DNA of 64,000 nt from Candidatus Micrarchaeota archaeon (GTDB lineage Archaea > Micrarchaeota > Micrarchaeia > Anstonellales > Bilamarchaeaceae): the NCBI GenBank assembly GCA_040754495.1, contig JBFMCO010000022.1:18233-82232 (forward strand). Direction: 5' to 3'. The notes below the pieces were generated by a model. It had not been told where the DNA came from and made no database searches. It saw only the letters and a program-made list of their open reading frames with translations. How positions within the stretch are numbered: position 1 is the stretch's first letter; each line of letters opens with the position of its first letter. The position numbers were made by a program, and so were the translations under genes. Shown one piece after another: positions 565-41,730 of this stretch.

Positions 565-654
565 CCAAAAAACTAATTGTTTGTCAACCCCCCGTGGTTA
601 CCATTTATCCAAAAAATCCAGCGGATTAAAAACGCGATTAGCGATAAAATATTC

Positions 655-1616: not shown

Positions 1617-1946
1617 ATGGCGAAGGAAAAAATCGACTGGTCACAGCCCCCCAACCCGTCACTGCCGTTTATCAGCCCGGAGAACATAGGCGAGGTCGAG
1701 AAGGAGGCGCTGGCGATGGCCAACAAGGCTATTTCTCTCCTTGAGCAGGCGATAGCAGCCTGGGACAACGCTAAGGACAAGCCGCCTGAGCTGAAAGGGA
1801 CGATTCAGAGGTACAGGCGGTTCCACGAGGCGCTGAGCGACTGGGAGAAAAGGATGCTGCAGTCCCTGGGGAAGGCGGATTTCAATGCCCGGGTGAGGAT
1901 GCTCGAGGAGTTCGTGAGGATAAGCAGGGCATACGAGGGTAACTGA
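1617..1946 (+). CDS. small helical hypothetical protein (109 aa), translationally coupled to the giant ORF
   Basis: ORF track. Its TGA stop (1944-1946) shares one base with the ATG (1946-1948) of the giant ORF (TGATG). Confidence 0.55.
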   Translation: MAKEKIDWSQPPNPSLPFISPENIGEVEKEALAMANKAISLLEQAIAAWDNAKDKPPELKGTIQRYRRFHEALSDWEKRMLQSLGKADFNARVRMLEEFVRISRAYEGN

Positions 1947-4900
1947 TGGGCCAGAAACCTGCGGAGAGGCAGCCCGAGGTGCGGGACGAAGGAGTCAGGG
2001 TCGCCCAGCCGCAGGTCCCGATGGTTCCGAGGGAACAGCCGCGCGGCGGCGCGAATGAAGCAGCCGCAAATGCCGCGACCGGCCTCGGCGTTATGGGCAA
2101 GTTCGCCGCGGTTCTCGATTTCATAATAGCAGACCCCAGCAGGGCCGAGGGGAGGCTCGCTGAATTCAGCCGGCGCCTGGAGCCGTACCGGGCGGATTAT
2201 CCCGAGGAGACGCGCATCGCCCTCGGCCTTTTCGGCGCCGCGTCACGAATGTACAGGGAAGCGCAGGACGCGCGGGCCCATGGAGACACGCAGCGCGCGC
2301 AGGAGCTGGAGGATTCCGCGAGGGCCCATTTCAGGGAGGGCATGGCGAAGGCCGGCTCCGTTCCCGGCATGGCGCAGGACATACACAGCCTGGCGGGTGC
2401 GGGAGCGTCGCCGGAATGGATTGAATCGCGCAAGGCGGCTTTCAACGACGTGGGGCTCGGGACGTGGAACAGGGCTATCGCCATCGACCAGGCGGTGGAG
2501 TGGCGGGTGAAGAACGACGCGATAATAGATGCCGGAGGCCCGGCTGCGCGGGAAGCAGAGGCCAGGATGCGCGATGAGGCAGTGAGGCTGGCCGAGGGCT
2601 CGAGGCAGGGCCAGGCCTTCAGCGAGCAGGATTATCAGGACACGATGAGGCGCTTTTCGGAGGCTTCCGCGCCTGTCACCGCCCTCGCAGCGCACATCCA
2701 CGGGGCGGCCGCGCTGTTCCACCAGGCCGCGATGAGGCAGGGCGTAAGCGAGCAGTACACGAAGGCGATGGAGGACCTGAAGAAGGAATTCGACAAGCTG
2801 CTCAAGAAGCTCGAGGAAGGGACCGCGACGAAGGAGGACGTGGAGAAGGCGAAGGAGCTGGCCGATGCAGTGAAGGCCGCTGAAACCGACCTAGAAGGGC
2901 TCTCGGGCGATGATGCAGTTACAGTCAGCGGAATCCATGCCCGCGGGCTCAGCGCCCTCAGGCAGGGGAAGGGAGAGATGGCGAGGGTGCAGCGCCAGCT
3001 CGCAAGGGAATACGCTAAAACGAAGGACCCCGGGATGAGGAAGAAGCTCGAGAGATGGAGCGCTGACCTCGCCAAGGGAAAGGCGCCGGAGGCCGAGTTG
3101 GAGAGGTGGCTGGAAGCGCAGAGGCCGGCGGAGTTCCGTGCGCTGACGACCGAAAACATAAAACGCGAAACCGCAGAAAGGGCGGGCCTGCTGCGGGAGA
3201 AGGGGTACGAGCGCAGCCATCCGCGCGAAACGAAAAGGATAGCTGAGCTGGACCGGGAAGCGGCCAAGGCGCTCGAAGAAGCGAAGGCATTGAGAAAAAG
3301 AGGCGACCTGGACGGCGCGGGGAAGCTCGAGGCGAAAGCGTTCAGGCTGCTTCGGGAGGCGAGGGCGAAAGTCCTCTGGCTCGAGCGGCTCGACAGGTTC
3401 CAGGCAAGGCTGGCCGGCATTAAGGAGCCTCCGGAAATGAAGAAGGCCGCGGAGGAGGTTTCGAAAGCGCTGGGCGGTGCATTCAATTTCATAGGGACGC
3501 AGGACGGGTGGCGGGCGAGGCTGGCATTCATCGCAGCGGACGTGTTCATCCGCTATGGCAAGGTTCTCCAGAGCAAGCCCGCGGCGCCGCTCCTCAAGGG
3601 CATCCTCAGCATCGTGGGCATCCTCTCGGACCCGAGGAAGAAGGTGGACGAGAAGAGGGCGCAGGAGGAGGTCGGAAGGCTGGAGCCGAAGGCGCTCTCT
3701 GCAGAGCTTGGCGGCCTCAAGGGCAAGGTCGATGACAAGGCGCATTCCAAGCTGACGGACGCGGTGAAGGCGGCATCAGGCTTCATAGGCACGAACCAGC
3801 AGTGGAGGGCAGCGTATCTCCTCAGGGGCGTGAAATTCTTCCTTGACAACCGGGAGAAGATTGGCACGCGGGGGAAGCTCTTCGAGGGCATCATGGGATT
3901 CCTCGGCAGGCTCGCCGACCCGAAGGGGGAGATAGGGGAAGAGGAGGCGAAGAGGGAGTTCGCGCGCATCACCGGGATACCTGCGGAAGCGCCGGCGCAG
4001 GCAGGCGGAAGACGGGAGGCGGCACTTACGGTAGCCGGCCTCAAGCAGGCCGGGGAAGGGTTCGAGAAGCGCCTCCGCGCCATACCAGGCCACGAGGAGC
4101 AGGTGCGCTCCATAACCGAAACAGTGAAGCTCGCCGGGGAGGAGTTCAGGGCTGGCAATGTGAAGAAGGCGCAGGAGCTCCTCGCGCTCGCGGAGAAGAA
4201 GGCCGCCGCCCTGGAAGGCGTAGTGGAGAGGGAAAAGAGGATAGACGCCTCAGGCGCGCCCGAGGAGGCGAGGGAGAAGCTGAAGAAGGCCGGCCTCGCG
4301 GCATTCAACGACTTGGGAAAGCAGAGCGGGGGAAGATTCGACACGGTAGTGAAGGCCACGGACCTGTTCCTGGGGGGGATGGAGCGGAAACTCTGGCTCC
4401 AGCCCGGCGGGGAGACGGCGGCCCTGAAGCTGCTCGATTTCATCGGCAGGCTGGGCGAAGGCGCGCTGCAGGGGCTGGAATTCGACTCCCAGGCCGCCGA
4501 ATCCGAGCTGTCTGATATATCGGCGCAGGCCGGGGAACTGTGGAAGGCGATGCTCGGCGCGTCCATCACCGAATGGCTCAGGCTGATAGAGGGATGGCGC
4601 ACGATGGGCGGGCTCGGCACGGCGAACGCGAAATTCCTGGACGACCTGGCAGAAAGCTACAGGGCGCTGCAGAAGCGGCTCGAGGAGGGCGCGAAGGCTG
4701 AGGACATCGAGCAGGAGGCATCGGCCCTCGAGGCGAGGGCGGAGCACGCGAAAAAAATCGGGGAGGAGCTCGAGGAAAGGGAGCGGGCGGTTGCGGTCTT
4801 CAGGGGGGACGTCGAGGACTTCAAGGCTGATACCGCTGCGTTCCGGGCATCCGAGCGGTTCAAAAAATACGCGGCCGATGCCGAGCCGTACGTGAAAAAG

Positions 4901-7900
4901 GCCGAGGAGTGGGAGGAGAAAGCGGCGACGTTCATGGCGGAAGCCGAGAAGCTGGAGGGCGACGCCAAGGCCGAGATGATAAAGAGGGCCGCTGATGCAG
5001 TGAAGCGCTCTGAGGAGCTGCTCGGCCACGCAGGGAAGATAATCGGGCTGCGGGAGGCCGGAGCGTCCGATGAGGTCGTTTCCGCGTACAGGAAGGCGGC
5101 GAATTCGTACATCGCAGTCTTCGAGCCGGCGCCGCCGGGGCTTGCAGGCGAGGCGCAGATATTTCCGGACGACGTTCTCGCCTACGCGGCAATCGTGTTC
5201 TCTGCAGCCGACAGCTACCTGTTCTTCAGGAAGCACGGGAGGGCCGAGGCGGAGAAGCGCGCCGAGAGGCTGGTTCTGGGCACGACCTTCGCCTCCCGCA
5301 TCGCGGATGCAGAAGCCGAGCTCAGGGGGCTGGACGGCGAGATGGAGTATGCCGAGGCTATTGACAGCGACACTGCGGCAAGGAAGCAGAAGCTCATGGA
5401 TTCCGCGACCGAACTCCGTGGCGACAAGAGGAAAGTCCCCAAGCCCCGCGAAGGCAGCGCGGAGTGGTACGGGCAGATGGCCCTCGATGCCTTGGAGCGG
5501 GGGGACTTCGCGGTTGCCGACCTGGCGGTGTATCGCGGCATGTTCGAGAAAGTGGCGCCTGGGGGCGGCAGGAACTACGTCCCGGAAGACATTGAGCGGG
5601 ACATAAGCGCGGTGCTCAGGGGAGAGAAGGTGCCGGCCGCCGGGGAACTGGACAGATACCTGACGCTCATAGATTCTGCTTCGCTGACCGCGCAAGCTGA
5701 CCTGCTGAAAAGGGACAACCCGGTTTCCGGCTCCGCGGAGGAGAGGGAGAGGAAGCAGAGGGTGCACAAGCTCGCTGAAGAAATAAAGAGGAGGGCGGAC
5801 GCGCACGATTTCGCGGGAGCGGAAAGGCTCCTTGAGATGGCGACGGTCTATACCGGCCTCGCAAGGGACAAGAAGTGGAAGGCGTTTGCCGGCGCGGACA
5901 GGATGGAGGCGGCCCTCGATGCCGAGCTTGCGGGCGGCGACCATTCCGGAGAGTTCCAGGCAGCGGTCGTGTACCAGAAGGCGAGCGAGGAGACGGCCTC
6001 GTTCCGCGCCTCGCTCGCGGATTGGGGAGCAGGGCTTGCAGAAAACAAAAAGCTCGTGGAGAGGGGCCTCCTGCGCGTGGAGCAGCTTGTCTCCGAAGGA
6101 AAGACCGAGGAGGCGGGCGCGCTCTTTGGTCAGCTCATGCTCTATGCCGGCGCGGTGAGGACCTTTGCCGCCCCGAAGAAAAGGGATGTGATACCCGGAT
6201 TCGACCCGGCATATGACAGCTCGAAGCTCGGAGGAATGGGCCTCGCGCTCGACGCGCTGATAAAGGGAGAGGCGGAGGTCGGCGGGAAGAAGCCGGAGGA
6301 GGTGTTCTCGCAGAGCTTCTTGGAGACGCAGAGGGAGTATCTCAACAAGAGGGCGGACGCGTATCTCAGGCTTTCAGAGAAAATGCCTGTCGGCGCGGAA
6401 ACGGTCGGGCAGGGGCTTGCCGAGGTACGGAGAAGGGCTGCGGAAGGGGACTTCGAGGGGGCACTGCGCCTGCTTGAGATGGCCGGCAACTACTACGGCG
6501 AGGCAGCCCCCGGCAAGCAGGCCGGGTGGAGATACAGGGATGCGACAAGGAAAGGGCCGGGCTACGAGAGGGGCAGGCAGGACATGCTGAACGCCATAAG
6601 CATGGAGATTGCGGCCAAGGACCCGGCGGACCATGACGAAGCTCTGGAGACGTTCAACAGCGGCAGTCAGAGAATATCTGTTGCAAAGGCCGCCATCGAG
6701 CGCTACGAAATCGTGGAGCGTAATATCTACAACGCCCTTCCGACAGCGGTGATAGACGAATGGGACCACCACGGCACGATTGCGCTGCGGGGGGAACCTA
6801 CACCCGAAAACGAGGAAGGGCCGGTGCTGGGCCGCGTAAGCATGGAAAAGATACGCAGGTACGAGAGCGAGCACCCCGATGATACGGCTCTCGGGGGAGG
6901 TCTGAGTCTCAAGACACTCCTTACGAAAATGAAAAAAGCGGCCGAAGAAGGGGACGACGAGGCATTCAGGAAATACGAGAAGGCGTTCTTCTCAAGGCTA
7001 TACCTGGTCGCTGGACGCATCTTGAGGCGGGAGCAGCTCGAGGAGAACAGGCAGGAGGTAAAAAAGTACATAGAGGTCCTCGAAGGCTTCACGGCGGCCA
7101 TTACAATCGACCAGCTTGTGCCTTACGGATGGCTGGAAGGGGACGATGAAAGGCTGAAGAAGGTCACGGCTCTTGAAAAACAGCTTAAAAATAACGAGAT
7201 AAGCAAGGCGGAGTTCGAGAGCAAGCTGAACGTGATTCTTTCCGAGCGCCTGCAGATGATAGAGCAGAACAAGTTCACGGACAAGGTCCCGGGGCCCATG
7301 AGGGAAACGGTCCGGCAGCTGGCGCCGAGGGCGAAGGCGTTGCTAGAGAGAGCCCGGGGCCTTTATGGCAAGCTCGAAAAGATGGACAACAACAGCAGTG
7401 AATTCCCGCTCGAGGAATACAAGCAGGTCGTAAAGGACTTGAGCGCGCTGACGGAGGAGTACCAGACACAGAGGAAGATTTCGGTCGCCTATTCACATAT
7501 CGACCAGCAGCTCCAGATGAATAAGAGCTACCATGAGGCCATCGCCGGAGAGGGCGCGTTAGCCTCGGATTACCCAGACGCTTATGGGAGGGCGGTCAAG
7601 TTCCTCGGCTTCTCGAACGGACATTTCAAAAAAGCCCAGGAGCTTCTCCTTAAAGGAGAGTTCAAACAGGCAGGCGCGGAGTTCGAGCGCGGTATAAACC
7701 GCCGCGAGTGGGCGCTGATGGAGGCCGACCCGAACGTGCTCTTCGGCCAGGCGAATACCTACCTTGGAAACCTCCCGATAAGCATGCTGACAGGAGTGCC
7801 CATCATCCCGGAATCCACGACAGCGATGGACGAGGTCAGCATGATCAAGCACAGGCCGGGCTGGGGCGTGCTGAAATTAGCCGCAAGGGGGAGGGGGGAG

Positions 7901-13900: not shown

Positions 13901-16900
13901 AGGCCGACGGAACTGCCGCCGGAGCTGCGCGGCATGCCGCCGGACGTTTCGTCCCAGGTCGGGATGGACGGGGCGCCAAAGGCAAGGCTGCTCTCGTCCG
14001 AGCCCCTGGGGCGCGGCTCGAGCGCGGACGTGTATCTTGCGGAAATGGTGATTGACGGAAGGCCGACCCGCGTCGCGGTGAAGATATACAAGAACCCGGA
14101 GGGAAACGGGACGTGGCAGGAGCGGGCAGAATATTTCGCGGACGAGGTGAGGAAAGCGAAGATCCTGGGCGATGCAGGCCTCGGCCCGAAGGTGTTCGGG
14201 ATTGCCGATGCGGGCGGGAACATGGCTTTCGCGATGGAGGTCATCGAAGGCAAGCCGATGTACATAGACGAGATGGCGCCCGGGCTCCGCGCGAAATACA
14301 TCAATGAGGACACGTTCGCGCAGGTCCGGAAAATGTATGACGAGCTGATAGCCCACGGATACGAAATCGGCGATTTCGATTTCATGATATTGACCGAAGG
14401 GCCGAATGCCGGCAGGGTTGTGTTCCTGGACGCCGGGGCGCTGCGGGAGGTGCCGCGCGGCGCCCAGGGCGAGCCACGGCCAAGGTACGGCGACGGCGCG
14501 AAGAGGGCGGAGGGCGGGAGGCTTCAGGCTGAGGCCATGACCGCCATGGAATATTTCACGAAGATGGACCGCGACGAGCTTGCCGCGGTAGCCGAGGTCT
14601 CGAAGGGCCTGCTCGGACAGGGCCATGTGGATTCGGACACCATGCGCCTGCTTGCGGTAAGATGGGGGAGCCGCGAGGGAAGGGCCAGGGCGATAGGAGA
14701 GTATATCACCAGTATCGCAGGGGCCGATGAGCAGAAGGCAAAGGCCACGTTCGACGCGCTGAAACGCATCGAGGCGGAAACCGGCATACGGCTGCTGCCG
14801 GATGGCGCGAGGTTCGAGGACCTTGCAGCCAGGGCGGGGGAGGGCGAGATATCGGAGGCGGAAATCATCGCGCCGATGTCAGGGGACGATTACCATGCCG
14901 CGCTCGCAGGGATGCGCACGCAGGCAGCACGCGAAAGCGTAGCGCTCCACTTCAGCGGAAGGGGCGAAATCCCGGACGCGGCCACCTTCGAAAATGCTGC
15001 CATACTGGCCGATGAGGCGGCAGGCGCGAAGGTGCCGGAGCAGGGCCAGGCCGAGCTGTCCGTATATTATGATGGGAACGGCAGGATAATCGGCATAGCG
15101 GATAACGAGCGGCTCTTCTACGGCGACCCCAAGGCGATAAATGACAAGACGCCGGAGGCGAAGGTCAGGGTGGACCTGGAGAGCGGCAGGATAGTCTCCA
15201 TGGACGAGCGCGGCATGAAGAACCCGCTCCTTGCGGACCTGGTAGGGCTGAGGATACTTCCGGGCAAGGGAGCGGAGGGCGCAGGGCCCGGCGGAAGGGG
15301 CCCGCCACCGTTGCCCCCGATGAAAGTGCTTGACGAAGGCAGCATAGTTTCGGCTTATGCAAGCGGGACAGGGCAGGCGCAGAGGACGAGGGCCGCCCGG
15401 TCGTTCGTGATGCTCGATGGCGAGGGGCAGGGGAGGGTGATATCGGAGCTGCGCTCCCAGGGCCGCCATGAAGAGGCCAGGCATCTTACCGAGCTGCAGG
15501 CGATAGGTGGGGAAGCCGGCGCAGGCATCGAAAGGGTTTACGGAATCCCGAGGGACGAGATTATCACGATATACGCGCGGGAGCCGACAGCCCAGGGCGC
15601 GAGGAAGGCGCTCGCGGAGAGGCTCGGCATCGTCATCCTGCCTTTCGAATGGGAGCATTATCCTGCGGACAGGAGGCAGTGGGTGTCCGTCCCGTACCGG
15701 GATTTCAGGTCTTTCGAGGACGACCACTTCCTCTTCGGGCTCATTACCTCAGGGAACATGATTGACACGGTCTCGCAGATGTATCCGGGAGGGAGGATAG
15801 CCTCCATAGAATACCATAACGGGGCGATAGGCGCTTACGAGGTCGCCATCAGGACGCAAAACGGGGAGACGCGCACCGTTTTCGTGAAGAGGCAGGATTT
15901 GCGCCCGGATGCGGCCGGCTCGGACTACTCGGTCCGCTCAGGCGTCCCGGCTCCTGAGGTCATCACCAGCGCCGGAGGCAGGGAGCTTACTTACGTCGGC
16001 CCGGACGGGGAGGTCTCGCGCTACGGCATTATAACCAACATGAGGGATTTCGGGGGGATGATGAGGTTCGGGGGAGTCGAGGCGCAGGTCAGGGCTACGG
16101 ACGAGACCGCGCTGTGGGACCTCGACAGGAGCCCCCTTGCCGGCTCGCTCATGTCTCAGGACCCGCAGGTGAGGGCGAAATTCTGGGAGGAGCTCGGCTA
16201 CATGCTGGCAGGCTCTTACGCGACCGGGATATGGGACAGGCATGCGGGAAACGCGCGCGCGATGGTCCTCGAGGTGCAGAACGCGGACGCGCACACGAAC
16301 CCCGCGGACCAATCATCACCGACAGTGGGCGAGGCGCTGTCGCAGAAGGGCTACTGGGTGTGGCAGCAGGACGGAAAGACGTACATGTTCATGATAGGCG
16401 GCATAGACACCGACACCGCGGCCAACTACCTTGCCGGCGAGGCGCACGGCAGCTTCGACATGACCGGCATGAACATAAGGTACGGCTATGTCGACCTCCA
16501 CAGCCTCTTTAACAGGCTAGCGACGATAAGAGGCACGAGCGTGGATGCGCTCGTCATGGAAGCCTTCGGCGATGTCAGCGGCGGTCAGGTGCCCGGCCCG
16601 GTCGCGATGGGCATGAAGAGGTGGTGGCGCGACTTCGGGAGCGACCCGCACTATGCCGATGAGATGGCCGGCCGGTTCTCCAGCCACGAAGGCGAGAGCA
16701 TAGGCTTCGGATACCCCAGGACCGAGCAGGAGCTGGACGTGATAAGGCAGGGGGGCGTGCTCCATCAGGAGAATCCGCAGAACGGCGACCCTTACACCAT
16801 CATCGCCTTCGCTGACGGCAGGTCTCGGATGAGGCCGGAATACGAGATAGTGCACCGTGAGGACATCGAAGCCCTCGACCCGCGCATAGCCGCGATGTTC

Positions 16901-19900
16901 CCTCCAGGGAGGGACATGTACGCCGTGGAGATAACCGGCGAGGTGCGGAAGGCCGTTCCGGACATAGACAAGAGGACGAACCGCATCCGGACCTCGGACG
17001 GCAGGATGGTCGCGATAATAGACTCGGCCGACCCGCTCGCGAAAACGCTGCTCGACGGGGGAATTCCTATGGTGAAGGCGAGGCGCGACATGCCCCGGCA
17101 GGGAGAAGTTGCCGTGGATGATGCGACCGGCATAATACGGGCCGCTCCAGGGTTCGGAAAGCTGACCGGAATCCAGGCCTACCAGGCCGGCCCGGTTCCG
17201 GTTTTCCGGGCGATGATGGGGGCAGGGGAGGGGTTCATGCTCGGGCAGTTCGCGCACATCGGCCATTATATATTGGCCAAGGAAACGAGCGTGAGGGAAG
17301 CCGCGCAGGTTCCTGCCGGAGTGGTGGCCGGGGAGATAGAAGCGCCGGGAATAGAGCGCATGCCCGCCCCGGCGCAGGTGGAAGGGGTAAGGGGCGGGAT
17401 GAGGGACCTGGTAGGGGCAGTCAGGTCCGGAGACGAGGGCAGGATAAGGGCCGCGGAAGCCGAGTACGATAAGAGGCTCGGAGTGCTGGCCAGGCTAAGG
17501 CCAGATACGGAACTGAGGGTCGTGGAAAACGAGACGCTGTTCGCGGACCTGGCTCCAGGGGGGCAGGCACAAGCGAAGGTGCTCGCGGCAGACTATCTCA
17601 GGAACAGGTCCGCAGGAAAGAAGCTTGACGGCGACCTGCTCGTCATCGACTACCTCGTATCGCATGGAATGAACGCGGTGGATGCGGCTGCGGCAGTCGT
17701 GAATCTGGGGGGCGCCGGGAAGGCGCCTGCCCCTGTGACGCTTCCGCCGTACGTTGCCGAGCACTTCGGGACCAGGCAGCCTGACCCGGTCACGGCTGAA
17801 AACGCGCTGATTCTTGCCGGGGACAGGAATACGCTCGGAAGATTGGGCATACCGGACGGCCTTGGCAGGGTCCTGAAAAGCGAGGGCATGGCTGTCGTGT
17901 CCGAAGGAAAGAGGATGACCGAGGTGAGAGGCTATTACGATCTGGAGAGCGGCAGGATAATATACCTCGGCAGGACGGACGCGCCAAGGGAGGTCACGGC
18001 GGGAGGAGTGGAGTTCGTCCTCCGTTTCGACCATGAGAGCGGGAGGGTATCCATTCCGGAAAGCGAGGACGTGCCGCTTCCGGATTCGATTGCCAGGCTG
18101 AACGGAATGCGCATTGCGCCCCCGCCCCAGGCAGTGCCGTTTGGCGTTTTCGGCATTTTCATGCCACTGTTCAAGTATTTCAGGAAGCCCCCGGCAGCCG
18201 CCCCGCAACCTGAGGCCGTGCCCATCAAGGTCCCGAGGTCCAGGAACGACATCCAGGGAAGGGCCGAGGGCATAAGGGGGCTGCCCCCGGACCAGCAGGC
18301 GCAGGAGCTTGCGGGGCTGCACGATGCCGTGGCCGCCGAGCATGGCGACGTTTATGCGAGGAATTACCGCGACATGATGGAGGAGCTGGTGAAGCATCCG
18401 GAGCATTCGGGCAGGATTCTCGACGAGTGGGAGGCGGTGAGGGCCGAGGAGAAGCATTACGAGGCGCTCGAGAGGGCGAGGAGGTATGCCTTCTCGGCCG
18501 CAGAGGGGTTCGGGATTGTCAGGGGGCAGGACAGGAAGCTCATATCAGGCGGAGAGTACGCGGCGGACATGGCACGCTCGAGGGGCGAGAAGCCCAAGGC
18601 ATTCCGGAAACGGCTCCTCGAAGCGTATGATGCCGGGTTCAGGAGAGGAGGCGTGCTCGATGCGAGGCTCGGCGTGGCAAATTCGCTGGGTGTGCTCGAC
18701 AATATAGTGGTAGAGTCGCGGCCGGGCGTCTTGGACGAAAAGAGGACGATGCAGGCGAGGAAGGAATTCATCAGGAAGAACCCGGAGTTCTTCGACCTAA
18801 TCATGAGGGGCGGACTCGAGGAGGTCATCTCCGCGAACCTCGGGGCCGGCGACGTGAGAATCGCAGGAGTCTCGCACGCGGGCGGCATGGCGCGGGGCGC
18901 GTACGGCGTGGAGGTCCTCCTTCCGGACGGCAGGAGGAAGCGCGTGTTCGTGAAGCTGGAGGACCTCGGGCCTGCCGCGTTCGGGGCTGATTTGGCCAGA
19001 GTCGAGGGCATGATTGCGCCGAAAGTCTTCACTGCGGATTCGCAGGGAAGGCCGCTCTCGTATGACGTGAGCTACAAGGACCCCATCGGAAAGAGGATGG
19101 TGAGCGGCCAGAGGCGCTTTGGCATCATGCTGGATGTCCGCGACACGGTAGGGCAGAAGGCCAGGGTGAGGACCGCGGACGGGAGGTTCAGGGAGATAAC
19201 GGTCACGAGCGTGGCGCTCGTTGGCGACGACATCTTCAATGCCAGGTCGCTTGACGGGATACCCCAGCCCTCCAGGGCCGCCGCGGAGGACTTCTGGACC
19301 GCAATGGGAAGCGAGGGCGGGCGCGAGGAGATGTTCAGGACGTGGTACGCGTACCAGGAGATGTCAAGGCGGGCCACCCTCAGCGACAGGCACACCGGGA
19401 ATTCGATGTACGTCATCGGCGTGACGTCGGATGGCGAGACCGTGAGGACGTTCCAGCCCATAGACCCGGACGATATCGGAGCCAAGGTCGAGGCCAGGCC
19501 GGAGGGCATGAACTTCAGCGAGTTCAACGATTTTTCCGCGCTCTACACGTCGAATTTCGTGAACGGCCTGTACCTCGCGTCGGATAACGCCGCGAGCCTC
19601 GGCCTGCTCAAATCCCCGATCAACCGCGCGCAAGCGAGCAGGGCAGCATCGAGCGACGCCGCGATGTCAGGGTGGAGGCTTCCGGAAGACCCCGGGTGGG
19701 TGAGGTCCGCGGCTGAGTTCATAATCATGGATTACGATGGCAAGCCGTTCGGCCTCGGAACGGACATGACGATAGGCGGGCACGGCTCGTACATAAAATA
19801 CCATGCCGGCAGGAGGAGGGCGGCAGGCTACGACGGCCGCGTCCGGATGTACTCGGACGAGATGCTGGCGGTTTATCGGGGAGCGCAGGACCCTGCCAAC

Positions 19901-22471
19901 GCGGCGGATGTCGCGCGCAGGGTGGATGAGCGGATGGGCTGGGAGAACGCCGGCCACATGAGGGCGCTTGAGCGGAGGTATCCGGACCTCGGCACCCTGC
20001 CTCCGCACATGCAGGAGTACAGGGAGCCCCTCGAGCGTGCGCGCAGGCGCATAGCGGGCGGCGAGAAGCCCGATGACGTTTACCTTGACGAGTCGAAGAG
20101 GATGCTGAGGGCTAATCCCCGGGAGAGGGCGAAGGCCGAGGACATAATCACGAGGCACGGGAGGGGCGTGGCAGACGCCGAGGTGTCCGCGGTCCTGGAG
20201 TTCCAGAAGAGAAACGGCATCGCGTCTTTCGAAGATGCGGCGTATGCATTCGTGAGACAGCAGGCCGCGCCGAAACCTCCAGCGGAACCGCTGCAGCCAT
20301 CCGAAGCCATTTACCGGAAGCATGAAGCGAATATTTTCGGCCCTGCCCGGGGGCAGCTTGGCAGCGAGCTCCTTGCCAGCCTGAGGGGCGCTGAGGAGAG
20401 GATAGCCGGCATGGTGCCTGAGGGGCCGGAGAGGGAGCGCGCGCTCAAAAGATGGGGCGAGTTTGCAGACCGGGCGCTCTCGCGCATCGCCGATCTCCCG
20501 GCACCCGAGCGCGCGGACGCGCTGGCGCGCTTCATGATAGCGGGCGACTATCTCCTCACAAGGGCGGCTGAGAACCCGGCGCGCACGAAGGCATGGCTCG
20601 ATTTCATCGCCGACAACCCGAACGCCGTCGAATACGCCATGCTCGCCAAACGAGGTCTCGACATAAGGGCGCAGGACATAGTCGTGGCCGAAATCCGCCC
20701 CAGCATCCATGACATGTCTGACAGGAAAGCGCTGAAGAAGGCCCTCGGGAAGAGGGTATCGTTCATGGAGGACGTGATACGCGAGATACCGGAAAGGTGG
20801 TTCATGGAGGCGGGGGTGAGGCGCGATTATATGATGGACCTTGCAGGTTCCGACCCGCTCAGGGCGGCGGCCGAGCTCGACCGCGTCACGATGCCGCACG
20901 GAATCAGTGTTGTGAGGAAGGCAACGGGCGTGTACCTCGCAGAGGTCTCGCACACGTTCTCGCTGCATGGCCAGCCGGACATCCGGGGCCTCGTAATAAC
21001 CGGCGCTTACGGGACGGGCGACATGTTCGACGGCATGACCGCGTATTTCAATCCCCTCAGCGGCAGGATTTTCATGCGCGGGACTGCCCATTTCGCGGAG
21101 GCCGGCATACCGGAATCCGCGCTTCCGGGCATGAAGATGACGTACGTGCATGAGATGCAGCACCTGCTCGACAACGCCGGCGGGTATGTCGCGGCACTCT
21201 CGGCCAGGTCTGCAGGGCGCGGAATGGCCTTCATGCCGGAATACCGCGCCAGGCTCGAGACCACGGCGGTCGCGAGAGAGGTCCTGGAGATGGTTCCCCG
21301 GCTGGGGGGCCGCGGGACCGAGGATGCCATCAACGCAGCCATCAGGAAGGACCCGGAGGAATACAAGCAGGCTTACAGGAAGGCGCTGGACGCCATGCGC
21401 ACAGGCGAGGACGGAAGGCCCGACCCGGACTGGGCGGGCAGGCCGCCCGAGGTTCTGCAGAACCGGCTGAGGAAGCTTATAGACGACGAATACCGGAGCC
21501 TTATGCCGCTGAGCTATACCGAGCTCTACGGGCCGACAACCGCAGGGATCGTCCGCGGGGAGATCACGGTCAGGAAGCCGGCCGCCCCCGAGGCCGTTCC
21601 CTTCAAGCCCGCCGTAGCCGCGGACTCGGCTCCGGGACGCGGGGAGCCGGACCTGCTGCGCTCTGCCAAGTATGAAAATGGAATCCTGACGATAGAGGCG
21701 GATTACCTGGGAGGCGAGCTTGCACATGCGGTGAAGCCGCAATTCGCCGAATCCGCGGTGAATGGCGAGTTCATCCCTTCCGGCGACAGGACAAAGCCGA
21801 GCGGCCTGTGGCTCTCGTGGGGCTCCGGCTGGGATTACTTCACAGGGAGCAACCCCGGCCTGATGTTCAAAGGCACCGTGAAGTTCAGGGCCGAGATGAG
21901 GTCCGGATTGAAGCTCTTCCTGCTTGACGGGCGCGAATCTTTCGATAGCATGATGGCCGAATTCCGGCGGGAAGTTAAGGTCGCCGAGACAACGGGGAGC
22001 GGGTATCCGGATGGCACCTGGCCTGATAACAACTGGGTGTACTACGAGAAGAGCCCATGGCAGTGGCTTAGGGAAAGGGGCTATGACGGCGTGGCCGTGA
22101 CGGAGGAGGGATATCTGGATACCAATTTCCAGTTCGGCTGGGACGCGGCCTCCATAGTCATTTTCGAGCCTGCGGGCAATGTGCGCCTGCCTGGAGGCGA
22201 AGCCAGGCTGGAGGAGTACAGGAAGGGTGCCCAGGGCAGCGCGGACGCCATGCTGCCCCTTATTGAAGAGGCAGGCCTGCCGTTATTCGGCCCGAATAAG
22301 GCGTATGACCTCATAGAGGCGTACGCCGGCGGCAGGGCTGAGCGCAGCCCGGGAAAGCGCATCGATGCCGAGGATGAGGCTTTCCTTAAAAAGCTCCTGG
22401 ACGAGAAACCGGGCCTTGAAGAGGCTGCGAAAAGGATTATCGAATACGTTAGAAAGAGGGAAGGGGGATAG
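1946..22471 (+). CDS. giant multidomain protein, 6,841 aa (repetitive helical region, hydrophobic cluster, 3 atypical kinase-like modules, 1 ePK/RIO-like module, HExxH site, unassigned C-terminal domain)
   Basis: Single uninterrupted ORF in the track. Competing ORFs inside it are antisense or off-frame, low-complexity Arg/Pro/Ser/Ala-rich shadows. Several catalytic-type motifs are conserved (see sub-features). Confidence 0.85.
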   Translation: MGQKPAERQPEVRDEGVRVAQPQVPMVPREQPRGGANEAAANAATGLGVMGKFAAVLDFIIADPSRAEGRLAEFSRRLEPYRADYPEETRIALGLFGAASRMYREAQDARAHGDTQRAQELEDSARAHFREGMAKAGSVPGMAQDIHSLAGAGASPEWIESRKAAFNDVGLGTWNRAIAIDQAVEWRVKNDAIIDAGGPAAREAEARMRDEAVRLAEGSRQGQAFSEQDYQDTMRRFSEASAPVTALAAHIHGAAALFHQAAMRQGVSEQYTKAMEDLKKEFDKLLKKLEEGTATKEDVEKAKELADAVKAAETDLEGLSGDDAVTVSGIHARGLSALRQGKGEMARVQRQLAREYAKTKDPGMRKKLERWSADLAKGKAPEAELERWLEAQRPAEFRALTTENIKRETAERAGLLREKGYERSHPRETKRIAELDREAAKALEEAKALRKRGDLDGAGKLEAKAFRLLREARAKVLWLERLDRFQARLAGIKEPPEMKKAAEEVSKALGGAFNFIGTQDGWRARLAFIAADVFIRYGKVLQSKPAAPLLKGILSIVGILSDPRKKVDEKRAQEEVGRLEPKALSAELGGLKGKVDDKAHSKLTDAVKAASGFIGTNQQWRAAYLLRGVKFFLDNREKIGTRGKLFEGIMGFLGRLADPKGEIGEEEAKREFARITGIPAEAPAQAGGRREAALTVAGLKQAGEGFEKRLRAIPGHEEQVRSITETVKLAGEEFRAGNVKKAQELLALAEKKAAALEGVVEREKRIDASGAPEEAREKLKKAGLAAFNDLGKQSGGRFDTVVKATDLFLGGMERKLWLQPGGETAALKLLDFIGRLGEGALQGLEFDSQAAESELSDISAQAGELWKAMLGASITEWLRLIEGWRTMGGLGTANAKFLDDLAESYRALQKRLEEGAKAEDIEQEASALEARAEHAKKIGEELEERERAVAVFRGDVEDFKADTAAFRASERFKKYAADAEPYVKKAEEWEEKAATFMAEAEKLEGDAKAEMIKRAADAVKRSEELLGHAGKIIGLREAGASDEVVSAYRKAANSYIAVFEPAPPGLAGEAQIFPDDVLAYAAIVFSAADSYLFFRKHGRAEAEKRAERLVLGTTFASRIADAEAELRGLDGEMEYAEAIDSDTAARKQKLMDSATELRGDKRKVPKPREGSAEWYGQMALDALERGDFAVADLAVYRGMFEKVAPGGGRNYVPEDIERDISAVLRGEKVPAAGELDRYLTLIDSASLTAQADLLKRDNPVSGSAEERERKQRVHKLAEEIKRRADAHDFAGAERLLEMATVYTGLARDKKWKAFAGADRMEAALDAELAGGDHSGEFQAAVVYQKASEETASFRASLADWGAGLAENKKLVERGLLRVEQLVSEGKTEEAGALFGQLMLYAGAVRTFAAPKKRDVIPGFDPAYDSSKLGGMGLALDALIKGEAEVGGKKPEEVFSQSFLETQREYLNKRADAYLRLSEKMPVGAETVGQGLAEVRRRAAEGDFEGALRLLEMAGNYYGEAAPGKQAGWRYRDATRKGPGYERGRQDMLNAISMEIAAKDPADHDEALETFNSGSQRISVAKAAIERYEIVERNIYNALPTAVIDEWDHHGTIALRGEPTPENEEGPVLGRVSMEKIRRYESEHPDDTALGGGLSLKTLLTKMKKAAEEGDDEAFRKYEKAFFSRLYLVAGRILRREQLEENRQEVKKYIEVLEGFTAAITIDQLVPYGWLEGDDERLKKVTALEKQLKNNEISKAEFESKLNVILSERLQMIEQNKFTDKVPGPMRETVRQLAPRAKALLERARGLYGKLEKMDNNSSEFPLEEYKQVVKDLSALTEEYQTQRKISVAYSHIDQQLQMNKSYHEAIAGEGALASDYPDAYGRAVKFLGFSNGHFKKAQELLLKGEFKQAGAEFERGINRREWALMEADPNVLFGQANTYLGNLPISMLTGVPIIPESTTAMDEVSMIKHRPGWGVLKLAARGRGEDPYKYTYGWAKQQMENDQDVNLGNPARPDYVKDPQQSWAYYNYSPITEYGADFMGYEELGGRLWNSVLEGDGRKVQRYQKQMLVMEASVFYIPVDTFIDGINSKITYKDWQKRIHFQAMYNGDLAYDELFGDWGLMDARTGAKIAEGVGMFALSIATMGLGSVGFVVGGGKMLWDAIDGIQKDLAKYGEVTTMSWVNLGLTVVGLGASAAAGRLVKASQTAIEAAKLGDAAKFTTQVARAGRFATAARVVAYTDITVNVIGMVPQFYYGIKLMAEGKYAEGTQQLAFGAFSAFMAYHGGVQQLRGMRGLKTEIAKMGALREAHAKAPEVFASLSTPEGMFSFLQRVRARDPVSLVIYDNLPKPQRILFDGMLADRNVVSALKKNDIGLARGAFDSGLETFKQLSDLGGTRALTDAAHLGTQAGLEPFMRDLLIPESATGPQRTRRDAAYARLGEMKKRPETAEAAATIETLLKDKDVQKGNETGVLKIGWAADEIRSQQMQTINRYTDSVVSGEQARLGLYSSEGEAARANAKRIGDSYLAYARARSEGKPFDWDYHAKRMGMGPEDAKKLFAKLDAVPDARTVAGVISREGVRQAVRNRVALDGRAILGDTPLTELAGEGALFSRWGELTPEDLFGMALNRRERAAEELEGAGRETDGRLAAAKRERATALSREADALDAEVKRRQAPEEVLTPDSLRSGAKEKFGRAQRLRSEGRDEEAFALESEARRSIALAADLEKFGEYGIVRATPDGQFIHRDFPDRRFTRAELDDAAILVRAIRKRGVPTDKRLLAIYDALPKEVKKDYRGGEDALMKSVLDVIYSRRGQAAEAAAPVLRSEELPVPSDPALAAVAGMTVPGTNLRWGVIPPDQVLQWQAKVYEAYKAAYGKIGLIYDSPEAMFAKNPEVLVATDGEGRIVAFTILKKTAFGTKLSLVGAVPDIPEGRAAARAMIQGFPALEGAYITAPGAPAHLAIKAGVPVVPYDSARIIQGEVPAEAGSPGAYQNGEGKWVRQEAQRGDGPEGMAAISRMPGFADSELVKHAIAQDGVKPGAKPEELTWNDLVEQAVKMGELPDRPEVRQNAFAVPMVINGKPEIVVKVMFGKPPADALEVRSVLQSRGIGGQVAADAINLYKIFNGEQVPLEVASRYMDVTLHDQYTRIKQEKIASGMPETKADAEALVEVAKSMAPRAGEGGLEAGGPISQEGVELLRMAEGKLDLVEGLTGADVAKATLDWSQPRLEMLRILTVEGSPYRERFLAADPAERAVIADAIARGATPERAFLKAAEGMVPADGRKLLEVGERLKGLPEAERNLRLRDLESLNPALGRMLKRLADPATPETVKQEIAAEWDSAVAGAERHKRVNEARAARDAAQLAEQELALLKGTPDEQAAGRVPAWIESAAKARGKDPAALHEALVKAYGEGGTEGRLRVLNELGALGGMPEGVRSTFVQNSPEFFELIVRGGLEGRVAAMPGFEGGIIVNAEKLEGLRGAYKIDVEMPDGSKRSLFVKAEDLVPAQLGSELAGGHGLLPPVIHAADGQGMPFTYDTGIRYTDPVSGQETAHMQEFGIMEDVHDYATARHSDVIMLPDGRSAQVTVESVAVVSREVFADPARMQAILADEHHPAHKVVKAFWELAKTEEGRQRIFQAWRAYHELSRRAMLLDRFDRNTVAVLVTTPEGESVLTFQPIDMDYVAGKIGSDGDLRFFNDDFASASVDFATKIAGAAGVPAETVLGEMAKAYGSDSVFPREAADERAAAAASVRATLNKYDGKPFGAGYDVEDYGKTIGKDYVEYGGRDRIVGRRDGRAILHAGDITPLGERIGGAEAEADFSRFNREKFERMAKPLEEAAPPPAVEAQPPAGEKTPPGKRGAGNVTPPARPGAMRGAPAGGPRTVPGKRGAGGGEPVAAPGGRRKVAIGGGEVELEPAPERAPELAAMKISEDELSQLGVSYQGLYQDGAGRRLNVFETEAGGERRLVAIPADLSGKAMLDAIGAEVRALGRPTELPPELRGMPPDVSSQVGMDGAPKARLLSSEPLGRGSSADVYLAEMVIDGRPTRVAVKIYKNPEGNGTWQERAEYFADEVRKAKILGDAGLGPKVFGIADAGGNMAFAMEVIEGKPMYIDEMAPGLRAKYINEDTFAQVRKMYDELIAHGYEIGDFDFMILTEGPNAGRVVFLDAGALREVPRGAQGEPRPRYGDGAKRAEGGRLQAEAMTAMEYFTKMDRDELAAVAEVSKGLLGQGHVDSDTMRLLAVRWGSREGRARAIGEYITSIAGADEQKAKATFDALKRIEAETGIRLLPDGARFEDLAARAGEGEISEAEIIAPMSGDDYHAALAGMRTQAARESVALHFSGRGEIPDAATFENAAILADEAAGAKVPEQGQAELSVYYDGNGRIIGIADNERLFYGDPKAINDKTPEAKVRVDLESGRIVSMDERGMKNPLLADLVGLRILPGKGAEGAGPGGRGPPPLPPMKVLDEGSIVSAYASGTGQAQRTRAARSFVMLDGEGQGRVISELRSQGRHEEARHLTELQAIGGEAGAGIERVYGIPRDEIITIYAREPTAQGARKALAERLGIVILPFEWEHYPADRRQWVSVPYRDFRSFEDDHFLFGLITSGNMIDTVSQMYPGGRIASIEYHNGAIGAYEVAIRTQNGETRTVFVKRQDLRPDAAGSDYSVRSGVPAPEVITSAGGRELTYVGPDGEVSRYGIITNMRDFGGMMRFGGVEAQVRATDETALWDLDRSPLAGSLMSQDPQVRAKFWEELGYMLAGSYATGIWDRHAGNARAMVLEVQNADAHTNPADQSSPTVGEALSQKGYWVWQQDGKTYMFMIGGIDTDTAANYLAGEAHGSFDMTGMNIRYGYVDLHSLFNRLATIRGTSVDALVMEAFGDVSGGQVPGPVAMGMKRWWRDFGSDPHYADEMAGRFSSHEGESIGFGYPRTEQELDVIRQGGVLHQENPQNGDPYTIIAFADGRSRMRPEYEIVHREDIEALDPRIAAMFPPGRDMYAVEITGEVRKAVPDIDKRTNRIRTSDGRMVAIIDSADPLAKTLLDGGIPMVKARRDMPRQGEVAVDDATGIIRAAPGFGKLTGIQAYQAGPVPVFRAMMGAGEGFMLGQFAHIGHYILAKETSVREAAQVPAGVVAGEIEAPGIERMPAPAQVEGVRGGMRDLVGAVRSGDEGRIRAAEAEYDKRLGVLARLRPDTELRVVENETLFADLAPGGQAQAKVLAADYLRNRSAGKKLDGDLLVIDYLVSHGMNAVDAAAAVVNLGGAGKAPAPVTLPPYVAEHFGTRQPDPVTAENALILAGDRNTLGRLGIPDGLGRVLKSEGMAVVSEGKRMTEVRGYYDLESGRIIYLGRTDAPREVTAGGVEFVLRFDHESGRVSIPESEDVPLPDSIARLNGMRIAPPPQAVPFGVFGIFMPLFKYFRKPPAAAPQPEAVPIKVPRSRNDIQGRAEGIRGLPPDQQAQELAGLHDAVAAEHGDVYARNYRDMMEELVKHPEHSGRILDEWEAVRAEEKHYEALERARRYAFSAAEGFGIVRGQDRKLISGGEYAADMARSRGEKPKAFRKRLLEAYDAGFRRGGVLDARLGVANSLGVLDNIVVESRPGVLDEKRTMQARKEFIRKNPEFFDLIMRGGLEEVISANLGAGDVRIAGVSHAGGMARGAYGVEVLLPDGRRKRVFVKLEDLGPAAFGADLARVEGMIAPKVFTADSQGRPLSYDVSYKDPIGKRMVSGQRRFGIMLDVRDTVGQKARVRTADGRFREITVTSVALVGDDIFNARSLDGIPQPSRAAAEDFWTAMGSEGGREEMFRTWYAYQEMSRRATLSDRHTGNSMYVIGVTSDGETVRTFQPIDPDDIGAKVEARPEGMNFSEFNDFSALYTSNFVNGLYLASDNAASLGLLKSPINRAQASRAASSDAAMSGWRLPEDPGWVRSAAEFIIMDYDGKPFGLGTDMTIGGHGSYIKYHAGRRRAAGYDGRVRMYSDEMLAVYRGAQDPANAADVARRVDERMGWENAGHMRALERRYPDLGTLPPHMQEYREPLERARRRIAGGEKPDDVYLDESKRMLRANPRERAKAEDIITRHGRGVADAEVSAVLEFQKRNGIASFEDAAYAFVRQQAAPKPPAEPLQPSEAIYRKHEANIFGPARGQLGSELLASLRGAEERIAGMVPEGPERERALKRWGEFADRALSRIADLPAPERADALARFMIAGDYLLTRAAENPARTKAWLDFIADNPNAVEYAMLAKRGLDIRAQDIVVAEIRPSIHDMSDRKALKKALGKRVSFMEDVIREIPERWFMEAGVRRDYMMDLAGSDPLRAAAELDRVTMPHGISVVRKATGVYLAEVSHTFSLHGQPDIRGLVITGAYGTGDMFDGMTAYFNPLSGRIFMRGTAHFAEAGIPESALPGMKMTYVHEMQHLLDNAGGYVAALSARSAGRGMAFMPEYRARLETTAVAREVLEMVPRLGGRGTEDAINAAIRKDPEEYKQAYRKALDAMRTGEDGRPDPDWAGRPPEVLQNRLRKLIDDEYRSLMPLSYTELYGPTTAGIVRGEITVRKPAAPEAVPFKPAVAADSAPGRGEPDLLRSAKYENGILTIEADYLGGELAHAVKPQFAESAVNGEFIPSGDRTKPSGLWLSWGSGWDYFTGSNPGLMFKGTVKFRAEMRSGLKLFLLDGRESFDSMMAEFRREVKVAETTGSGYPDGTWPDNNWVYYEKSPWQWLRERGYDGVAVTEEGYLDTNFQFGWDAASIVIFEPAGNVRLPGGEARLEEYRKGAQGSADAMLPLIEEAGLPLFGPNKAYDLIEAYAGGRAERSPGKRIDAEDEAFLKKLLDEKPGLEEAAKRIIEYVRKREGG
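8330..8800 (+). other. hydrophobic/Gly-rich cluster (probable membrane-spanning segments) inside giant ORF
   Basis: Translations such as GVGMFALSIATMGLGSVGFVVGGG, WVNLGLTVVGLGASAAAG and LAFGAFSAFMAYHGG. This is the only strongly hydrophobic stretch I saw in the 6,841 aa. Confidence 0.45.
12245..13370 (+). other. atypical kinase-like module A of giant ORF (catalytic-loop His replaced)
   Basis: FVQNSPEFFELIVRGG... SLFVKAEDLVPAQLG (Lys codon 12428-12430) ... LLDRFDRNTV (12887-12904) ... FQPIDMDYV (12962-12973) ... KYDGKPFGAGYD. Collinear with modules B and C. Confidence 0.55.
13970..14470 (+). other. ePK/RIO/Bud32-like small kinase-like module of giant ORF
   Basis: Gly-rich loop LGRGSSADVY (from 14006), VAVKIYK (Lys codon 14081-14083), AHGYEIGDFDFMIL (Asp 14372-14374), VVFLDAGAL (Asp 14429-14431). 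No Asn follows the putative catalytic Asp. Confidence 0.5.
15790..16720 (+). other. atypical kinase-like module B of giant ORF
   Basis: GAYEVAIRTQNGETRTVFVKRQDLRPDAAG (Lys 15887-15889), GIWDRHAGNARAM (16235-16252), MIGGIDTDTA (16400-16414). Confidence 0.55.
18767..19880 (+). other. atypical kinase-like module C of giant ORF
   Basis: FIRKNPEFFDLIMRGG... GAYGVEVLLPDGRRKRVFVKLEDLGPAAFG (Lys 18953-18955), LSDRHTGNSMYV (19385-19402), FQPIDPDDIG (19457-19471), DYDGKPFGLGTD. Confidence 0.55.
21149..21163 (+). other. HExxH motif (HEMQH) in the C-terminal region of giant ORF
   Basis: MKMTYVHEMQHLLDNAG. cat gag atg cag cac lies in the giant-ORF frame. Confidence 0.5.
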
Positions 22472-22489: not shown

Positions 22490-23026
22490 TCAGGGCACGG
22501 CCTGCCCGTTTATCACGAAGCTGAATTTCTGCCTCTCCTTCTCAAGCGCCTTCACGGTTTCCAGAGAGTCCTTCAGCATGCGCAGGAAAGGCTCCCAGGA
22601 GCCGCTGCCGGAATGGATGCTGCGGATGGCCTCGGAAACGACGACCTTCCTTTTCTTGTCCACGAAAGTGCAGTAGATGCTGCTTCCCCGGCGCCTGACA
22701 TCGATGCCGTATTCCGCGAAATCCTCCTCCGGCGGAAGTGTGGCGCCGAGCGCGAGCGCGGATGCGACGGATTCTATCCCCTTCCTCGGCTCGGACGAAT
22801 AGGACTGGACGCCGACGCCGTCCTTGAGATAAAGGCTGTCCGGAATCCTGAGGAGCGGCTCCAGCTCCCGGGGCATCCCGCCGGCGATTTCCGCGAGGGT
22901 GTCCATGAGGCGCTCTTTAGTTGCGCGGTCCCGCAGGAGCGGATCTGCCAGCATCTTCTGGAACCTTTTTTCGCCTATGTCCGTTACGGTTGCTCCGGCC
23001 GTTTTCTTTTTTCTCTTTCCTGCCAT
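22490..23026 (-). CDS. small hypothetical protein, paralog family member 1 (array convergent on giant gene)
   Basis: ORF 22490..23032 (GTG); ATG at 23026 preceded by GGTG. The core IPDSLYL...YGIDVRRRGSSIYCTFVDKKRKVVV...GSWEPFL aligns with the 24133..24663 product. Its stop lies 18 nt from the giant ORF stop. Confidence 0.65.
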   Translation of the reverse strand: MAGKRKKKTAGATVTDIGEKRFQKMLADPLLRDRATKERLMDTLAEIAGGMPRELEPLLRIPDSLYLKDGVGVQSYSSEPRKGIESVASALALGATLPPEEDFAEYGIDVRRRGSSIYCTFVDKKRKVVVSEAIRSIHSGSGSWEPFLRMLKDSLETVKALEKERQKFSFVINGQAVP

Positions 23027-23028
23027 CG

Positions 23029-41690: not shown

Positions 41691-41730
41691 AGGGATATAT
41701 GTTCTACCATTTATTTAAAAAGGCTTCCGC

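Follow-up and report, generated by a model that had tools for sequence, protein, structure and literature searches.

The giant gene, its family and its domain plan

The stretch analysed here (the window) comprises 64,000 nucleotides (nt), positions 18,233 to 82,232 of the forward strand of contig JBFMCO010000022.1 in assembly GCA_040754495.1 of a Candidatus Micrarchaeota archaeon. One open reading frame (ORF) of the window, 1946..22471 on the + strand, starts with ATG and runs through 6,841 codons with zero internal stops. It encodes a giant protein made of repeated helical sequence, a hydrophobic cluster and a series of enzyme-like domains, among them three predicted kinase modules, and small genes of one family (S genes) lie directly 3' of it on the opposite strand. 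The protein has relatives in other archaeal metagenome-assembled genomes (MAGs), and the numbers of its kinase modules and of the S genes beside it agree. An earlier inspection of the letters and translations, made without database searches (the sequence-only reading), had described the ORF as an uninterrupted mosaic of this kind. We hold the descriptive part of the present account, namely a real gene, an unnamed family, a domain plan and matched partner genes, with high confidence. The family domains were delimited by iterated hidden Markov models (HMMs) within a set of 89 family proteins. The features are listed below by nucleotide position, with amino acid (aa) positions in brackets.

1617..1946, + strand: U109, a helical protein of 109 aa, whose TGA stop overlaps the ATG of the giant gene (TGATG)
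1946..22471, + strand: giant ORF, 6,841 aa, no Cys
2213..3733, + strand: N-terminal helical domain (aa 90-596), in 26 family proteins, with repeat-like copies to about aa 896
5543..7099, + strand: 'mid1' block (aa 1200-1718), in 5 family proteins; common to P0032, P0048, P0050 and P0062
8339..8797, + strand: hydrophobic cluster of four Gly/Ala-rich helices, from hydropathy
10373..11215, + strand: conserved domain (aa 2810-3090), called GNAT-like in the sequence-only reading, in 6 family proteins
11297..12124, + strand: helical 'preA' domain (aa 3118-3393), which precedes A-type kinase modules, in 24 family proteins
12104..13525, + strand: predicted kinase module A (A-type; aa 3387-3860), with K3495, D3648-R-F-D-R-N3653 and D3674-x-D3676
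13433..13645, + strand: P/G/R-rich linker, read from the translation
13880..14803, + strand: RIO/APH-like domain (aa 3979-4286), in 12 family proteins
14939..15262, + strand: spacer copy 1 (aa 4332-4439), 31% identical to aa 5270-5392 (E 2.7e-4)
15548..17005, + strand: predicted kinase module B (B-type; aa 4535-5020), with K4648, D4764-R-H-A-G-N4769 and D4821-x-D4823
17003..17566, + strand: 'postB' domain (aa 5020-5207), which follows B-type modules, in 29 family proteins, often C-terminal
17753..18121, + strand: spacer copy 2 (aa 5270-5392), a duplicate of spacer copy 1
18572..20023, + strand: predicted kinase module C (A-type; aa 5543-6026), with K5670, D5814-R-H-T-G-N5819 and D5840-x-D5842
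20360..21622, + strand: zincin-like domain (aa 6139-6559), in 9 family proteins, duplicated in P0052
21623..22468, + strand: W/G/Y-rich C-terminal domain (aa 6560-6841), from the translation of the window
22490..23032, − strand: S1, S-family small partner gene of subtype X, 180 aa
23029..23577, − strand: S2, S-family small partner gene of subtype Y, 182 aa
24133..24663, − strand: S3, S-family small partner gene of subtype X, 176 aa, 95% identical to P0090 in GCA_964540525.1

The giant ORF represents a true gene on the chromosome of a Micrarchaeota-type DPANN archaeon. Its GC contents at codon positions 1, 2 and 3 (0.65/0.46/0.79) are uniform across ten 2-kb slices and the same as in the neighbouring genes. 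The overlapping ORFs, none longer than 691 aa, are shadows of the GC-rich giant gene because their GC by codon position is displaced and their products are R/L/P- or S/A/P-rich, as the sequence-only reading had held. Independent MAGs carry homologues of 5,000-7,300 aa with the conserved domains all in one frame. The reality of the ORF follows from these three observations. The longest DNA repeat inside the gene is 45 nt at 80% identity; therefore, repeat-driven misassembly is unlikely. The GC content of the window, about 62%, lies above the 26-60% tabulated for Micrarchaeota lineages (PMC12892359).

The giant protein contains no Cys among its 6,841 residues, a point absent from the sequence-only reading. 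The depletion is a property of the family, which has 295 Cys in 289,160 residues (0.10%) against 1.36% in the other ORFs of the window, a difference of about 13-fold. At the background of 1.36%, the chance of finding zero Cys in the giant is 2e-41. The S proteins, with 4 Cys in 538 residues, are not depleted.

Relatives were sought by comparing an alignment of the three internal modules with 1.84 billion representative proteins in an exhaustive profile search. The relatives numbered 83 at E<=1e-3 and 47 at E<=1e-30, and the majority were 3,000-7,300 aa long. Twenty clusters were looked up, and all 14 that bore an organism name were a 'hypothetical protein' of Candidatus Micrarchaeota or Micrarchaeia MAGs. 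The species genomes of GTDB held three relatives, two in MAGs labelled Micrarchaeota or Micrarchaeia and one in a MAG labelled only 'archaeon'. Single MAGs carry two or three members, some in tandem. The members in STL-MIC1 are U0R44_03465, U0R44_03430 and U0R44_04435; here P0012 (5,879 aa) lies 3.4 kb downstream of P0001, and the third member, P0018, has 5,154 aa. Two members lie on one 47-kb contig of the AB1529 MAG, and the AB1324 MAG also has two. A word-indexed homology search, which is nearly blind to this family, gave no match for aa 5450-6841 and one match only when queried with the module profile, and a first metagenome scan with patterns from module B found nothing.

Neither half of the giant had a significant match in Pfam, NCBIfam, PHROGs or PADLOC, and sequence searches of the PDB with a single sequence and with profiles of 3 or 18 modules returned nothing significant. 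No description of the family was found in the literature. By these sequence comparisons the giant is one member of a recurrent family without a name in databases, seen so far only in MAGs labelled Micrarchaeota or as unclassified archaea. The sequence-only reading had recognised no described family; this stands as regards curated databases and the PDB, but the protein is not an orphan. The homologues that it had proposed to seek in archaeal MAGs exist, with conserved residues of catalytic type.

In the common plan of the family, helical repeats fill about 2,000 residues and lack a signal peptide, hydrophobic helices lie in mid-protein, and enzyme-like domains form a shuffled array. In the N-terminal part, an internal repeat relates aa 485-590 to aa 584-688, and the N-terminal domain matches repeatedly along the N-termini of the window protein, P0001, P0002 and P0006. 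The four hydrophobic helices (aa 2132-2152, 2178-2200, 2228-2248 and 2270-2284) all align with P0032, P0048, P0050 and P0062, and the block around them (aa 1950-2320) has five strong and three marginal matches in the family. A hydrophobic segment between about aa 1,600 and 2,700 occurs in 20 of the 36 members of at least 4,000 aa. The only N-terminal hydrophobic segment among the long members is a weak one at aa 44 of the window protein, and no signal-like segment was detected by hydropathy. No relatives within the family set were found for aa 2320-2810, the spacers and the C-terminal 280 residues; for aa 6560-6841, none was found in the word-indexed search, the PDB or Pfam either.

Most of the architecture had been anticipated correctly by the sequence-only reading, namely the helical N-terminal region with internal repeats, the absence of a signal peptide, the hydrophobic cluster (claimed at nt 8330-8800), the P/G/R-rich linker, the duplicated spacer and the W/G/Y-rich C-terminus. 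Its view of the protein as a mosaic is also borne out. The order of the domains differs between homologues, as in P0001, where the HExxH domain stands before the RIO/APH-like domain; therefore, the giant proteins are true mosaics. Some relatives carry metallophosphatase and possibly PIN domains.

Enzyme-like domains and matched partner genes

Modules A and C are 39% identical (E 1e-47), and module B is more distant from them; it is 50-57% identical to the B modules of P0001 and P0002. An AlphaFold2 model of module C built from an 18-sequence alignment reached a predicted local distance difference test score (pLDDT) of 90.1 and a predicted template modelling score of 0.89, whereas a 3-sequence alignment gave an unusable model (pLDDT 42). 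The predicted fold is bilobal, with a beta-sheet in the N-lobe and a helical C-lobe, as in the superfamily of protein-kinase-like proteins. The top Foldseek matches in the PDB were ATM, VPS34, PI3Kgamma and DNA-PKcs, and those among viral models were giant-virus PI3Ks. The residues expected of an ATP site are conserved among 56 family modules, with the beta3 Lys in 50, D-R in 56 and 55, N in 56, and I-D-x-D in 56 and 53. Modules A, B and C of the window each keep the Lys, the catalytic Asp and Asn, and the metal-binding Asp. The model and these residues agree with the earlier description of the three modules as kinase-like.

On the basis of the predicted structure, modules A, B and C are PI3K/PI4K-like kinase domains, with the PI3K, PI4K and PIKK families as their closest structural neighbours. 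The catalytic loop of modules B and C reads D-R-H-x-x-N, as in PI3K/PI4K, and that of module A reads DRF..N; the His is kept in 17 of the 56 family modules. After the beta3 Lys comes x-[EQ]-D-L, recalling K-x-x-DDLRQD, and the metal-binding Asp lies within I-D-x-D. The cores VK-x-[EQ]-D-L and D-R-[HF]-x-x-N are each matched once per module. The PROSITE-type signatures of PI3K/PI4K are K-x(1,3)-[DEA]-[DE]-[LIVMC]-R-Q-[DE] and D-R-H-x-x-N with upstream context. In these full forms the modules do not match them, and PF00454 gave no match to either half of the giant even at E<=1. The modules are only 9-15% identical to PI3K/PI4K/PIKK proteins and occur in an archaeal host; membership of that branch is not demonstrable. 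In a survey of microbial kinomes, PI3K was classed as eukaryote-specific (PMC1821047).

Genes of the S family, each of about 180 aa, lie directly 3' of the giant gene, on the opposite strand and convergent with it, in all seven loci with a visible 3' end (the window, L001, L002, L003, L005, L006 and L008). In all-against-all scoring, the S proteins form two clearly separate subtypes, X and Y, and the kinase modules two types, A and B. The counts at each locus are as follows.

Window: kinase modules 2A + 1B; S genes 2X + 1Y
L002: kinase modules 1A + 2B; S genes 1X + 2Y
L001: kinase modules 1A + 1B; S genes 1X + 1Y
L003: kinase modules 1A + 1B; S genes 1X + 1Y
L005: kinase modules 1A + 1B; S genes 1X + 1Y
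L006: kinase modules 1A; S genes 1X
L008: kinase modules 1A; S genes 1X

Each A-type domain is matched by one X gene and each B-type domain by one Y gene, the two pairs of counts being equal in 7/7 loci. When the S sets were reassigned among the loci, the counts matched in 12 of 5,040 orders (p about 0.002). The S family has an invariant Ser. We also considered whether the S genes run colinear with the kinase modules and rejected this, as their orders differ among loci. Between S2 and S3 lies an ORF of 165 aa (23610-24107, − strand), which does not belong to the S family and is called as a 134-aa gene in contig L004. We rejected it as an additional cognate partner; homologues are absent from the other loci save the near-identical L004. 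Upstream of the giant gene, U109 had no match in Pfam, PHROG or PADLOC. Exact look-ups returned no record for U109 or for CysRS. A homologue (E 1e-18) is found in L001 at 17688-18050 (+), directly before the start of P0012 at 18051 (+; listed as 18051-21467).

The HExxH site noticed in the sequence-only reading is HEMQH, at aa 6402-6406. Together with E6438 and E6445 it is invariant across nine homologous domains (alignment A7), a gluzincin-like arrangement, on which the name zincin-like is based. No Pfam peptidase matched the domain, and the sole hint from the PDB was a weak one to anthrax lethal factor (E 0.23). Matches of the HExxH profile to TALE repeats (E 7e-11 overall) were rejected as the sum of about 12 weak repeats, each with E of about 100; they trace to a helical hairpin of about 44 residues at positions 142-185 of the A7 profile. 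Two other ORFs of the window carry similar motifs without a Pfam match: a 322-aa ORF at 577-1545 (+) with HETLH, and a 394-aa ORF at 27209-28393 (−) with HEVAH, which is conserved in contig L004. Neither matched the HMM of the zincin-like domain, and both were rejected as its paralogues.

The module previously described as ePK/RIO-like has invariant residues G4024, K4046, E4067, D4143-F and D4162 (alignment A8). A kinase-type relationship has borderline support from Rio1 (E 0.046, in the G-loop and Lys region only) and from Pfam APH (E 7.5e-4) and RIO1 (E 0.23), each of the Pfam matches in one of seven members. However, the Asn of the catalytic loop is absent (D-F-[QD]-F). The stretch suggested to be GNAT-like falls within the strongly conserved domain at aa 2810-3090, which is 57-60% identical to segments of P0004 and P0017, but Pfam had no match in four members at E<=1 and the best acyltransferase in the PDB had E 1.6, with no relationship detected in the PDB. 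The GNAT assignment was rejected.

Possible function and rival explanations

We tentatively propose that the giant is a putative membrane-inserting multi-effector with cognate inhibitor-like partners, a possibility that we take seriously without calling it probable. The protein would be a multi-warhead effector at the interface between symbiont and host. Its helical N-terminal part and hydrophobic cluster would anchor in or insert into a membrane, and the kinase domains would act on lipids or proteins where ATP is present, in the host cytoplasm or a cytoplasmic bridge. The zincin-like domain might process the polypeptide. In the producer, the S proteins would bind the cognate kinase domains one-to-one, and binding would hold each kinase inactive or folded until deployment, in the manner of an immunity protein or a chaperone. 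The effector reading would explain the Cys depletion, the shuffling, the multiple divergent paralogues and the co-varying partners; we infer from the Cys depletion an export-like composition and count it in favour of this reading.

Several observations weigh against this proposal. The giant has no signal peptide, and scans of Pfam, NCBIfam and PADLOC found no known secretion or delivery domain in it. Four hydrophobic helices, an even number, put both flanks on the same side of a membrane, by default that of the symbiont cytoplasm, and these helices are Gly/Ala-rich and only moderately hydrophobic. A Pfam scan of 30 neighbouring ORFs found no secretion genes. The S family matches nothing in Pfam or the PDB and has no known immunity fold. 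The seven loci are interrelated, so that the matched counts represent only about three independent copy-number changes (an additional A together with an additional X, the same for B and Y, and a joint loss of B and Y), and some counts may be incomplete, with the giants of L005 and L006 cut at the N-terminus and those of L002 and L008 cut downstream. Moreover, matched copy numbers fit substrates, activators or regulatory subunits equally well.

This last point belongs to the main rival, in which the giant serves the symbiont as a cytoplasmic megascaffold or signalling machine tethered to a membrane, and the S proteins are its dedicated substrates, activators or regulatory subunits. The four helices would anchor it in the symbiont's own membrane with both flanks inside, and the kinases would phosphorylate endogenous targets. 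We consider this somewhat unlikely, although much speaks for it. PI3K and PIKK kinases have obligate partner subunits, to which the module-to-partner numbers are equally suited, and the invariant Ser of the S family could be an acceptor site. Kinases require ATP, the giant lacks a signal peptide, the even number of helices is conserved in relatives, and the genes sit among housekeeping genes. However, the 13-fold Cys depletion of the family, absent from the S proteins, is unexplained for a cytoplasmic protein. The extreme shuffling and the presence of two or three divergent paralogues in a genome of less than 1.2 Mb (PMC12892359) resemble genes of conflict or interaction more than genes of housekeeping signalling. 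Finally, the S genes are on the opposite strand and therefore are not co-translated subunits.

Three other explanations are less likely than the scaffold. An improbable one is a cell-surface fibre or adhesin for attachment to the host, with a helical stalk and extracellular enzymes like the secreted CotH or Fam20-type kinases. Surface proteins are typically large and Cys-depleted, and giant ones, the SPEARE proteins, are known from other DPANN groups (PMC10266531). Those of Nanohaloarchaeota include two proteins of 8,880-9,409 aa in cultured strains, with an N-terminal Sec signal, arrays of Ig-like and fibronectin domains and a VirB4/TraG-like ATPase (Hamm et al. 2019; PMC10266531). The giant of the window resembles them as a giant protein of a DPANN symbiont with a tiny genome and a proposed role in host interaction. 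However, it lacks the Sec signal, the Ig-like and fibronectin arrays and the ATPase, it carries kinase-fold and zincin-like domains in their place, and the sequences showed no relationship. Pfam found no Ig-like, fibronectin, LamG or other adhesion domain in it; SPEARE proteins have both a signal and such domains. Outside the cell, four kinase-fold domains whose ATP-site residues are intact would have no ATP, and the cytoplasmic-looking partner proteins fit an adhesin poorly.

The sequence-only reading had likened the protein, by analogy only, to effector arrays or polyvalent proteins of symbionts and mobile elements. The first part of the analogy agrees with the source, a DPANN symbiont lineage, but no evidence for a mobile element or virus was found, and we judge it very improbable that an integrated virus, plasmid or other mobile element encodes the giant as a polyvalent protein. 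A putative tRNA-Gly is located 1.4 kb upstream, PHROG tape-measure families match weakly (E 0.002), and a multi-enzyme array with a zincin-like domain recalls the polyvalent proteins of phages and conjugative elements, which Iyer, Burroughs and Aravind (2017) are said to have described; both have a mosaic of unrelated enzyme domains, including zincin-like peptidases, in a huge protein. However, the giant is chromosomal, none of the polyvalent-protein domains of Pfam was detected in it, and no relative was found in 2.9 million viral contigs. Its GC content and codon-position GC equal those of the flanking genes, and a 95%-identical relative has the same genes beside it. Elsewhere, no copy of the tRNA sequence was found that would bound an island, and a Pfam scan of the neighbours found no integrase, capsid or conjugation genes. 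The matches to PHROG tape-measure and tail-fibre families fall in helical low-complexity sequence and were rejected. Least credible of all is an assembly chimera or a fused or decayed gene with an artefactual single ORF. Giant genes often break assemblies, and a closely related MAG contig, L004, ends beside the gene. However, 20.5 kb without a stop, uniform codon statistics, the lack of long internal DNA repeats and the in-frame homologues of independent MAGs speak against it.

The proposed effector can be compared with known toxins. MARTX and large clostridial toxins combine long repeats, a hydrophobic translocation region, a variable effector array and a processing protease in one polypeptide, and the giant would combine the same kinds of parts, with a protease-like domain that could free the effectors. 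However, no homology was detected; those toxins are bacterial, act against eukaryotes, use known secretion routes and process themselves with a Cys protease, whereas the protease-like domain of the giant is zincin-like and its delivery is only proposed. Pore-forming colicins have convergently oriented immunity genes. Colicin immunity genes and polymorphic toxin-immunity systems have reportedly been described by Cascales et al. (2007) and Zhang et al. (2012), respectively. The likeness to polymorphic systems lies in the variable C-terminal enzyme domains on a conserved scaffold and in the cognate small proteins downstream, with co-varying subtypes. The differences are that the giant would carry several 'warheads' per chain rather than one at the tip, that the S family has only two subtypes, and that the giant, U109 and the 322-aa ORF have no match in PADLOC, a scan that did not include the S proteins.

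The kinase family, the zincin-like domain and the partner-protein family are new here. The proposal can be widened to a new archaeal effector system, in which giant Cys-free membrane-inserting proteins would deliver PI3K/PI4K-like kinases and a zincin to host archaea, each kinase being checked by its own small protein; in this full form we find it rather doubtful. If this is true, multi-effector toxins with immunity-type partners would have their first counterpart in archaea. The PI3K/PI4K/PIKK fold would also gain a deep-branching prokaryotic lineage there, which bears on the origin of 'eukaryotic' kinases. The predicted modules extend the PI3K/PI4K-like fold into archaea. Micrarchaeota genomes measure 0.33-1.2 Mb (PMC12892359), and two or three family genes of 15-22 kb amount to several per cent of the coding capacity of one genome. 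This expenditure suggests that the giants are central to a host-dependent life. For the mechanism by which DPANN archaea engage their hosts, the family offers a defined and recurrent candidate machinery with testable parts, namely three kinase domains, one zincin-like domain and three predicted cognate partners. The rule that kinase subtypes and partner subtypes occur in equal counts can be checked in every new genome.

Genomic setting

The genes flanking the giant are archaeal housekeeping genes for the large subunit of DNA polymerase D (DP2), CysRS, a formyltransferase, GMP synthase subunit B, ribose-5-phosphate isomerase, an AlaX-like protein, a family-2 glycosyltransferase and an ArsR-type regulator. 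The same neighbours, with about 95% protein identity, are found in the 9.5-kb contig L004 (GCA_964540525.1), which ends beside the giant gene. About half of the 30 neighbouring ORFs had no Pfam match.

The putative tRNA-Gly(CCC) at 461-540 (+) was called by ARAGORN with a length of 80 nt and is not reported by Rfam at its gathering threshold. A second, partial tRNA at 42984-43041 (−) was found by Rfam (model positions 10-63, 30 bits) and not called by ARAGORN. The two calls may be intron-containing, split or degenerate tRNAs, as in DPANN archaea.

The gene for DP2 (31778-36658, −) contains an intein with a LAGLIDADG homing-endonuclease domain (Pfam Intein_splicing and LAGLIDADG_3). Tandem genes for class I S-adenosylmethionine-dependent methyltransferase-like proteins of 311 and 318 aa lie at 40755-42687 (−). 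Ribose-5-phosphate isomerase A (44598-45806, +) has an N-terminal extension of about 190 aa with a weak match to a DeoR C-terminal sensor domain. At 63275-64000 (+), a partial gene for a classical Ser/Thr protein kinase (Pfam Pkinase, E 3e-12), cut by the end of the window, is unrelated to the kinase modules of the giant.

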